From contig JAPHTF010000061.1 of the NCBI GenBank assembly GCA_026197095.1, forward strand, positions 5,418 through 69,417: DNA of 64,000 nucleotides, read 5' to 3'. The notes under the pieces are model-generated. The model did not search any database, was not told the origin of the DNA, and was given only the letters and a program-made list of their open reading frames with translations. Both the position numbers and the translations under genes were made by a program. This stretch comes from Gammaproteobacteria bacterium. GTDB lineage: Bacteria; Pseudomonadota; Gammaproteobacteria; UBA6429; Thiohalophilaceae. Positions within the stretch are counted from its first letter, which is position 1. Each line of letters opens with the position of its first letter. This document shows positions 33,608-34,068 of this stretch, piece after piece.

Positions 33608-33856
33608 TCATTTATTACTTAAATACTCTTCATAAGTATTATTTAAAACCCGCAAAAGTTCGTTTATATTATCTGGATGCATAACAATGCGTGAGTGATA
33701 GTGAGGATCTTCATCTCCCTCATAATGCATTCCAAATTCAATTACAAACTCAAACGAATTAAAACCAGCTCTTACAAAATTAGAGTATGTATATGTCTTT
33801 TTATTTTCGTCAGTCACACTTATCTCAAAATAAGAACTTAATATCTTAATGAGCAA
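33608..33856 (-). CDS. DUF3467-like small protein; true start probably GTG 33817 (69 aa)
   Basis: The pattern YSNFVRAGFNSFEFVIEF...SRIVMHPDNINELLRVLNNTYEEY resembles DUF3467 as I recall it. The ORF-track TTG start is part of the -12 promoter element, so it cannot be used from that promoter. Confidence 0.5.
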   Translation of the reverse strand: MLIKILSSYFEISVTDENKKTYTYSNFVRAGFNSFEFVIEFGMHYEGDEDPHYHSRIVMHPDNINELLRVLNNTYEEYLSNK

Positions 33857-33868
33857 GTAGTGTGCCAG
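33853..33868 (-). promoter_or_regulatory. Sigma-54 (-24/-12) promoter CTGGCAC-ACTAC-TTGCT
   Basis: The reverse complement of 33853-33868 reads CTGGCACACTACTTGC, matching TGGCAC-N5-TTGC. It lies directly between the bEBP gene and the CIS operon. Confidence 0.75.
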
Positions 33869-33893
33869 CAGTTAAACGCGACATTATTTTACG

Positions 33894-33906
33894 TAACGTG
33901 TTGATT
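33894..33906 (-). promoter_or_regulatory. Possible IHF site AATCAACACGTTA (WATCAANNNNTTR)
   Basis: Consensus match on the minus strand, centred about 58 bp upstream of the predicted TSS, between the palindromes and the -24 element. The AT-rich context raises the odds of a chance match. Confidence 0.35.
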
Positions 33907-33975
33907 TTATATTAAAAATTATTTTTTTATGACGAACAATTAATAATTGTGAGGAATTGGTGTTACTTAAACTTA

Positions 33976-33990
33976 GTTACACTATGTAAC
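33976..33990. promoter_or_regulatory. Candidate enhancer (UAS) palindrome GTTAC-N5-GTAAC
   Basis: Inverted repeat about 115 bp upstream of the -24 element. The GTTAC/GTAAC pentamer occurs about 6 times in 33890-34070. Confidence 0.45.
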
Positions 33991-34040
33991 CAGTCAATAT
34001 TAGGTGATTGTTTTTAGATGTTTTTTTTGCTGTTATATTT

Positions 34041-34068
34041 TGTAACATACGGATATGGGATTGTTACA
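34041..34068. promoter_or_regulatory. Candidate enhancer (UAS) palindrome TGTAACA-N14-TGTTACA
   Basis: Perfect 7-bp inverted repeat about 190 bp upstream of the -24 element, just downstream of the bEBP stop codon. Confidence 0.45.

Follow-up and report, generated by a model that had tools for sequence, protein, structure and literature searches.

A predicted sigma-54 control region at the head of a contractile-tail operon in a gammaproteobacterial genome

Introduction

How is a contractile-tail operon that sits on a genomic island switched on? The operon considered here lies in a 64,000-nucleotide stretch of contig JAPHTF010000061.1 (assembly GCA_026197095.1), called the window below, where it shares a 19-kb island with its candidate promoter and with the gene of a bacterial enhancer-binding protein (bEBP). 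A preliminary description, made from the sequence alone, proposed that the DNA between this activator gene and the operon carries a complete sigma-54 promoter architecture. The follow-up analysis supports that proposal through the conserved position of every part of the architecture across dozens of loci of the same activator lineage. On this comparative sequence evidence, positions 33852-34069 would be the control region of a self-contained sigma-54 switch heading the operon, a reading to which we assign a probability of roughly 85%.

The core promoter and its setting

The promoter is read on the minus strand. TGGCAC at 33867-33862 and TTGC at 33856-33853 form an exact match to TGGCAC-N5-TTGC with the GG-N10-GC spacing (GG at 33866-33865, GC at 33854-33853), within the longer element CTGGCAC-ACTAC-TTGCT at 33852-33868, just where a -24/-12 element had been drawn. 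The predicted transcription start site (TSS) falls at about 33841. The element was also said to lie between the bEBP stop codon and the first operon gene, and it does: 270 bp separate the activator stop (TAG, 34089-34087) from the predicted GTG start, at 33817, of the first gene, which encodes a small DUF3467-like protein. The -24/-12 element stands about 36 bp upstream of this GTG in the correct orientation. No terminator-like site was found on the operon strand in the stretch from the activator to the first genes.

An exact TGGCAC-N5-TTGC occurs once in the window, at the promoter itself, and seven times in the 3.12-Mb genome, compared with about three expected from base composition. Five of the seven were counted as upstream of a gene, two of these being coding according to a crude mask of open reading frames (ORFs). 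When one mismatch is allowed, the window holds seven such sites against a mean of 4.4 in shuffled sequence (15 of 100 shuffles reach seven), and the genome holds 123, of which 24 are intergenic; with an intergenic fraction of 19%, this is no overall enrichment. Because one-mismatch sites are not enriched in intergenic DNA genome-wide, only exact or well-placed -24/-12 sites were treated as informative.

The mRNA leader predicted in the window is about 24 nt long and contains a GAGA Shine-Dalgarno-like motif. At the corresponding place in the closest related locus (L074, positions 4099-4131), the DUF3467 gene begins with an ATG only about 4 nt downstream of the predicted TSS (about 4125), and the mRNA would be nearly leaderless.

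Enhancer words and the integration host factor site

Two palindromes built from the same word had been placed about 115 and 190 bp upstream of the promoter. An inverted-repeat search returns both, with centers 117 and 188 bp upstream of the promoter GG. The distal one, a putative upstream activating sequence (UAS) at 34040-34069 on the minus strand, reads TTGTAACA-N14-TGTTACAA. Its arms, at 34040-34047 and 34062-34069, are 14 nt apart, and its heptamers, TGTAACA at -201 and TGTTACA at -180 from the T of TGGCAC, are 21 bp apart. The proximal putative UAS, at 33961-33991 on the same strand, emerged from the repeat search and word counts and comprises gGTTACA at -124, TGTAACt at -114 and aGTAACA at -100. 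It includes the palindrome GTTACA-TAG-TGTAAC, with arms at 33976-33981 and 33985-33990 and 3 nt between them.

The repeated GTTAC/GTAAC pentamer pointed out earlier is likewise far above chance. Six copies lie in the 218 bp that separate activator stop from promoter; dinucleotide shuffles average 0.84 copies of GTWAC, and none of 5000 reaches six. Six is also the maximum for any 218-bp segment of the 64 kb, reached by 2 of about 3,190 segments. TGTNACA heptamers no more than 31 bp apart are found in the whole window only as the distal pair.

Between the UAS and the core promoter lies a predicted site for integration host factor (IHF), AATCAACACGTTA, at 33894-33906 on the minus strand, starting at -39 from the T of TGGCAC. 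It matches the consensus WATCAANNNNTTR exactly, one of nine exact matches on both strands of the 64 kb, and its center is about 59 bp upstream of the predicted TSS, in agreement with the 58 bp or so given before.

Conservation across related loci

The closest relative of the window, locus L074 from a Logan assembly, has a sheath protein 78% identical to that of the window and the same series of a 309-aa activator, a DUF3467 protein and p316, the first protein of the tail operon proper. Its core promoter reads TGGCAT-ATATC-TTGCT. A palindrome, AGTTAC-N5-GTAACT, is centered 116 bp from the GG, compared with 117 bp in the window, and provides the words aGTTACg and TGTAACt at -123 and -113. A distal pair, TGTAGCA-N12-TGTTACA, follows just after the activator stop, in the same place as that of the window. 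The promoter, the proximal palindrome and the distal pair have thus been kept while the intervening sequence diverged. These positions are in promoter-anchored coordinates; a pairwise MAFFT alignment misplaces the proximal palindrome.

A set of 71 genome loci with a common gene order represents the wider tail family. A bEBP gene lies directly upstream on the same strand in 5 of the 71, and in 4 of these 5 the DNA from the activator to the tail genes contains a -24/-12 site. The site is exact in L029, has one mismatch in L026 and in L039, and has two in L018, where it stands in front of a DUF3467 homologue. No convincing promoter was found in the fifth, L013. Among the other tail-family loci a one-mismatch site is present only in two from Actinobacteria. 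Where the activator is missing, the architecture as a whole is absent, and the genes upstream are unrelated or encode other regulators, of the LuxR/GerE and response-regulator types.

The activators that head tail loci fall into two groups. Group A (the window, L074, L018 and L039) has the GAFTGA motif and a helix-turn-helix (HTH) with the pattern WNKSRAA..L.WSRMT.YRK; group B (L013, L026 and L029) has GAFTDA and a different HTH. The TGTNACA heptamer was not found upstream of group-B promoters, and it occurs only twice in the 20.6 kb upstream of activator-less tail loci. The group-B-headed regions free of TGTNACA words are L026 4697-5030, L029 4405-4985 and L013 4505-5060. In place of DUF3467, the group-B lineage has another small gene, of about 75-100 aa, behind a -24/-12 site of its own.

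A metagenome scan with the group-A HTH extended the comparison to 80 loci, or 45 after removal of duplicates. On the forward strand, a GG-N10-GC site with at most zero, one or two mismatches is present in 8, 15 and 35 of the 45 loci. The same regions give 0, 1 and 5 on the reverse strand, and the activator coding sequence gives 0, 1 and 7 on both strands together. Position counts over these sites reproduce TGGCA[CT]-N5-TTGC. An unbiased k-mer count of the regions from activator stop to promoter found TGTAACA/TGTTACA in 30 of 39, compared with 1.1 expected, and TGTCACA/TGTGACA in 20 of 39. Anchored on the promoter, the heptamers form a proximal group near -115 and -102, typically TGTAACA-N6-TGTTACA, and, in most related loci, a distal pair spaced 18-23 or 30 bp apart that often overlaps the activator stop. 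The window fits this two-group plan, with heptamers at -201/-180 and at -124/-114/-100. IHF-consensus matches with at most one mismatch begin at -41 to -39 in 10 of 38 loci, and only two fall elsewhere in the 127 positions from -140 to -13.

The protein that binds the heptamers is probably the adjacent activator, for which the co-variation of the word with the HTH lineage is the best available evidence. In seven loci (L076, L098, L107, L121, L127, L131 and L146) the TAA stop codon of the activator lies inside the first enhancer heptamer (TG-TAA-CA), and the end of the gene overlaps its own putative binding site.

Sigma-54 equipment of the host and the proposed mechanism

The preliminary description had named the lack of an rpoN gene among the findings that would refute a sigma-54 promoter. 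The genome has one such gene, with a Sigma54_DBD match of 174 bits, in a 478-aa open frame on contig C152. It also encodes about ten bEBPs and both IHF subunits, alpha and beta (ihfA and ihfB), above the NCBIfam cut-offs. Sigma-54 sites with at most one mismatch stand upstream of flgB, flgA, fliK, a flagellar-type sensor kinase gene, glnA, nirB and nitrate/nitrite transport genes. The position of these sites, ahead of flagellar, glnA and nitrogen genes, indicates that the canonical consensus serves the canonical regulon in this host. One-mismatch sites also occur on C65 (24103-24117 and 9129-9143), 60-95 bp upstream of glgC-like and pgi-like genes identified by eye, which would be unusual members of a sigma-54 regulon.

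From the arrangement of these parts we infer the following course of events. The 309-aa activator, composed of an AAA+ and an HTH domain, would be made from its own promoter and would bind the TGTNACA-type heptamers at the distal (about -200/-180) and proximal (about -124 to -100) positions upstream of the -24 element. IHF may bend the DNA at its site centered about 33 bp upstream of the -24 GG. The activator could then contact RNA polymerase-sigma-54 held in the closed complex at TGGCAC-N5-TTGC, and ATP hydrolysis would open the promoter. Transcription would proceed from about 33841 through the DUF3467-like gene and into the tail operon of about 17 kb.

A portable cassette and its DUF3467-like gene

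The first gene of the operon (33608-33817, minus strand) encodes a divergent DUF3467-like protein of 69 aa (Pfam DUF3467, 3.9e-09). Its longest ORF begins with a TTG inside the -12 element; the likely true start is the GTG at 33817, in the same frame, which lines up with where the L074 homologue begins. A structure model has a predicted local distance difference test (pLDDT) score of 92 and shows three strands and a helix (beta-beta-beta-alpha). A fold search with the model returned nothing significant; its best matches, PC4/Sub1 and MRP1/2 at E 0.4-0.6, are a lead only. A PDB sequence search with the DUF3467 profile found no match.

The protein is a member of a divergent subfamily, scoring 35.6 bits where canonical DUF3467 proteins, which are common in some families of the phylum, score 70-90 bits. 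None of the canonical copies examined, whether at 30 loci in further genomes of the phylum or on contig C56 of this genome, adjoins an activator, and the link between DUF3467 and activator holds only for the divergent subfamily. The C56 copy (2743-3024, 80 bits) lies beside a very large repeat protein with an open frame of more than 1400 aa.

Within the activator lineage the link is strong, and a DUF3467-like gene directly follows the activator in 50 of the 80 metagenomic loci. The genes that come next in these group-A loci are not of the tail family of the window. Four encode Phage_sheath_1 sheaths (L110, L121, L131 and L136, the last two nearly identical). Others headed by the cassette encode winged-helix-domain (WHD) plus AAA ATPases (two), Pvc16_N proteins (six), gp19 tubes (three), T4_baseplate proteins (three) and eCIS_core proteins (two). 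By gene content, the other cassette-bearing loci with these genes classify as canonical loci for extracellular contractile injection systems (eCIS). In some loci the first large gene after DUF3467 is cargo-like: L125 (3106-6288), L126 (4689-8120) and L077 (6440-8116), with the enzyme domains Peptidase_C70, amidase plus C92 plus trypsin-like, and thermolysin M4.

Since canonical eCIS genes follow it elsewhere, DUF3467 is tied to the activator rather than to any one machine. The switch cassette recurs ahead of contractile machines of this sort in many bacterial phyla. Judged by this comparison, the promoter is part of a portable activator-promoter-DUF3467 cassette and not of this tail lineage as such. 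A further step, on which we are tentative and which we think somewhat less probable than its opposite, is that the cassette is a portable switch captured repeatedly by structurally unrelated contractile systems, with the DUF3467-like protein as a part of the switch rather than of the tail, either as a partner of the activator or as a nucleic-acid binder. As a partner, it could restrain or help an activator that often lacks a sensor, by analogy with PspA-PspF and HrpV-HrpS. Binding of nucleic acid could be the alternative, as hinted at by the weak resemblance of the modeled fold to PC4/Whirly proteins.

The tail operon and the reach of the promoter

The contractile-tail-like operon was delimited at 16636-33574 on the minus strand from the ORF list, with gaps of 0-48 bp, together with baseplate matches and the sheath fold. 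After DUF3467 come 14-15 tightly packed ORFs, most of which match no Pfam or PHROG family, in the order p316, the 392-aa sheath, p145, p113, p1034, p633, p166, p212, p655, p111, a gp25-like protein, a gp6-like protein, p788 and p389. All 15-16 ORFs of the operon are intact. The 174-aa and 483-aa proteins match PHROG baseplate wedge families of the gp25 and gp6 types. The sheath has no Pfam match and no PDB sequence match. A sheath model built from an alignment of 20 homologues (pLDDT 74) matches 25 chains at E <= 0.001, all of them from contractile phage tails or R-type bacteriocins, with the sheaths of phage 812, the C. difficile diffocin and R-pyocin at the top (E 3e-10 to 1e-8).

Among the operon proteins, Pfam and PHROG searches found no capsid, portal or terminase family, and no lysis genes were identified. 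The searches also hit no type VI secretion system (T6SS) family (TssB/C sheath, TssM/L or ClpV) and no canonical eCIS family (Phage_sheath_1, gp19 tube, Pvc16 or Afp15-type AAA ATPase). The baseplate-wedge matches, the sheath fold and the lack of capsid, T6SS and canonical eCIS families show that the name contractile-tail operon is right; the operon encodes a contractile tail-like particle of a small-sheath, uncharacterised lineage and not an eCIS of the Afp/PVC type.

The island is flanked by a direct repeat of 235 bp with 88.5% identity (16246-16480 and 35619-35835), and no integrase was found among the ORFs examined on it. The sheath gene was found in none of the 40 related genomes examined, which fits an island bounded by a direct repeat. 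Sheath homologues 50-78% identical, always annotated as hypothetical, occur in more than ten phyla, including Cyanobacteria, Actinobacteria, Acidobacteria, Chloroflexi, Planctomycetes, Myxococcota and Proteobacteria. Such conservation is striking for a seemingly uncharacterised tail family.

A real sigma-54 promoter might serve only the DUF3467-like gene as a two-gene unit, with p316 and everything after it transcribed from a promoter of their own. The activator-DUF3467 pair does travel as a unit ahead of different gene sets, tail loci without the cassette must use some other promoter upstream of p316, and a sigma-70-like match (10/12) is present inside p316 at 33499-33470. Nevertheless, the gap from the DUF3467 stop to the p316 start is only 33 bp, and no terminator-like site was found in it. 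In L039 the activator and promoter directly precede p316 with no DUF3467 gene at all, which indicates that the promoter serves tail genes. In other loci, DUF3467 is followed immediately, on the same strand, by structural genes of eCIS. A promoter confined to the small gene is therefore unlikely, and a switch that heads the whole operon is preferred.

The activator and its control

The activator gene (34087-35016, minus strand) encodes a sensor-less bEBP of 309 aa with Sigma54_activat (Pfam, 2.9e-65), AAA_lid_14 and HTH_8 domains. Its AAA+ domain begins at residue 2 and its HTH is of the Fis type; lacking a receiver domain, it does not belong with the NtrC-class response regulators. It scores below every NCBIfam equivalog cut-off, including those for PspF (TIGR02974, 257.7 against 443.55 bits; NF008622, 223.7 against 529 bits). 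Long group-A relatives have an N-terminal Response_reg domain that is often divergent (19-47 bits against a cut-off of 30.2).

A receiver is present in 36 of 59 complete relatives and missing here. Together with the approximately 570 bp of AT-rich non-coding DNA upstream of the gene, and with a weak sigma-70-like site (9/12) at 33915-33886 over the IHF region, its absence could mean that the cassette is a decayed relic, its activator truncated and inactive and the operon silent or transcribed by read-through or from sigma-70 promoters. Several findings speak against decay. The short form, about 300-340 aa, is found in approximately 23 of the 59 relatives, and no remnant of a lost N-terminal domain was detected in the DNA upstream of the gene, so the short activator is a regular variant and not a broken gene. 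The L074 activator is likewise 309 aa long although only 62% identical in sequence, which indicates purifying selection. The Walker A (GETGTGKE), GAFTGA, Walker B, sensor and HTH motifs are all intact, as are the ORFs of the operon, and the stretch from the activator to the first genes holds fewer sigma-70-like sites than shuffled sequence does. A relic is accordingly very unlikely, and an intact activator, as the sigma-54 switch requires, is the better account.

With only AAA+ and HTH domains in the protein, its control must come from the level of expression or from a partner protein. Either its own promoter or a partner such as the DUF3467-like protein may provide that control. The promoter of the activator presumably lies in the stretch at 35017-35587, which is about 570 bp long, AT-rich (about 33% GC) and free of ORFs. 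Neither a TGTNACA word nor a -24/-12 site was found upstream of the activator gene, and thus no autoregulatory site.

That the motifs are chance matches in AT-rich intergenic DNA, as the unexceptional number of one-mismatch sites in the window might suggest, is scarcely credible given the exact core match, the GTWAC count reached by no shuffle and the retention of all elements in position and strand across dozens of independent loci; as far as sequence analysis goes, the comparative data refute it.

Some observations do weigh against the proposed switch. An activator without the receiver of most of its relatives could be constitutive, partner-controlled or inactive. The proximal site, GTTACA-N3-TGTAAC plus aGTAACA, is a variant of the commoner TGTAACA-N6-TGTTACA. 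The rpoN gene runs off the end of its contig, and the last 35 or so residues, which would include the RpoN box, are unseen. Along the 17-kb operon there are several weak terminator-like and sigma-70-like matches, at chance level, and internal promoters are possible.

Relation to known systems

The preliminary description called RpoN-dependent control of a contractile-tail operon unusual. This does not hold for T6SS, where sigma-54 is well known, and stands for extracellular and tailocin-type systems. T6SS clusters are under the control of sigma-54 and a cluster-encoded bEBP, for example VasH in Vibrio cholerae and Sfa2/Sfa3 in Pseudomonas, and such control was reportedly described by Bernard et al. 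in 2011. The likeness lies in a cluster for a contractile injection machine with its own bEBP and -24/-12 promoters. The operon in the window, however, is phage-tail/tailocin-like, with a 392-aa sheath and no T6SS family hit, and the activator, which belongs to another lineage, has TGTNACA as its own enhancer word and a DUF3467 gene linked to it.

The layout is identical to that of the sigma-54 promoters of the NtrC/NifA type. In glnAp2, nifH and Pu of the TOL plasmid, a UAS lies about 100-200 bp upstream, IHF binds in between and the core has GG-N10-GC. Here, in contrast, the genes to be switched on are those of a tail-like machine rather than of metabolism, the half-site is TGTNACA and the activator is below the named NCBIfam cut-offs. 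PspF and HrpR/HrpS are sensor-less bEBPs, under partner control in the pairs PspA-PspF and HrpV-HrpS. The activator in the window resembles them in having only AAA+ and HTH domains. It differs in coming from a receiver-containing family, and no PspA- or HrpV-like partner was identified.

A regulator gene adjoining a phage-tail-like injection locus is also a feature of published eCIS, for which regulators of the GerE/LuxR type, BTAD and RfaH have been listed (Geller et al. 2021, PMC8213781). GerE is presented there as the first conserved regulator of eCIS, and sigma-54 is absent from the text. Only in the supplementary tables does Sigma54_activat appear among the enriched domains, with 49 genes (odds ratio 1.59, "Shell"), as does DUF3467, with 6 genes (odds ratio 17.6, "Cloud"); the tables also contain pairs of an activator and a small gene in Leptothrix and Pelobacter loci. 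Chen et al. 2019 make no mention of sigma factors or promoters. When the literature was searched for sigma-54, RpoN or enhancer-binding proteins together with contractile injection systems, all that came up, apart from unrelated items, concerned T6SS, and DUF3467 is essentially unmentioned. The association of the cassette with eCIS is thus visible in published supplementary data, yet undescribed in print.

Implications

The regulatory device itself is of a known kind. The novelty lies in finding the cassette in front of a second, uncharacterised tail lineage. Its presence ahead of at least two unrelated tail lineages suggests that such machines exchange their regulatory heads. The DUF3467-like gene, an invariable part of the cassette, is a candidate for a new co-regulator of bEBPs.

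The switching-on of eCIS and tailocin-like particles is largely unexplained, and a sigma-54 switch offers a concrete handle on it. The cassette, with its enhancer word TGTNACA, IHF site and promoter, may be used in genome searches for further loci, and silent clusters may be induced in laboratory hosts by supplying the activator.

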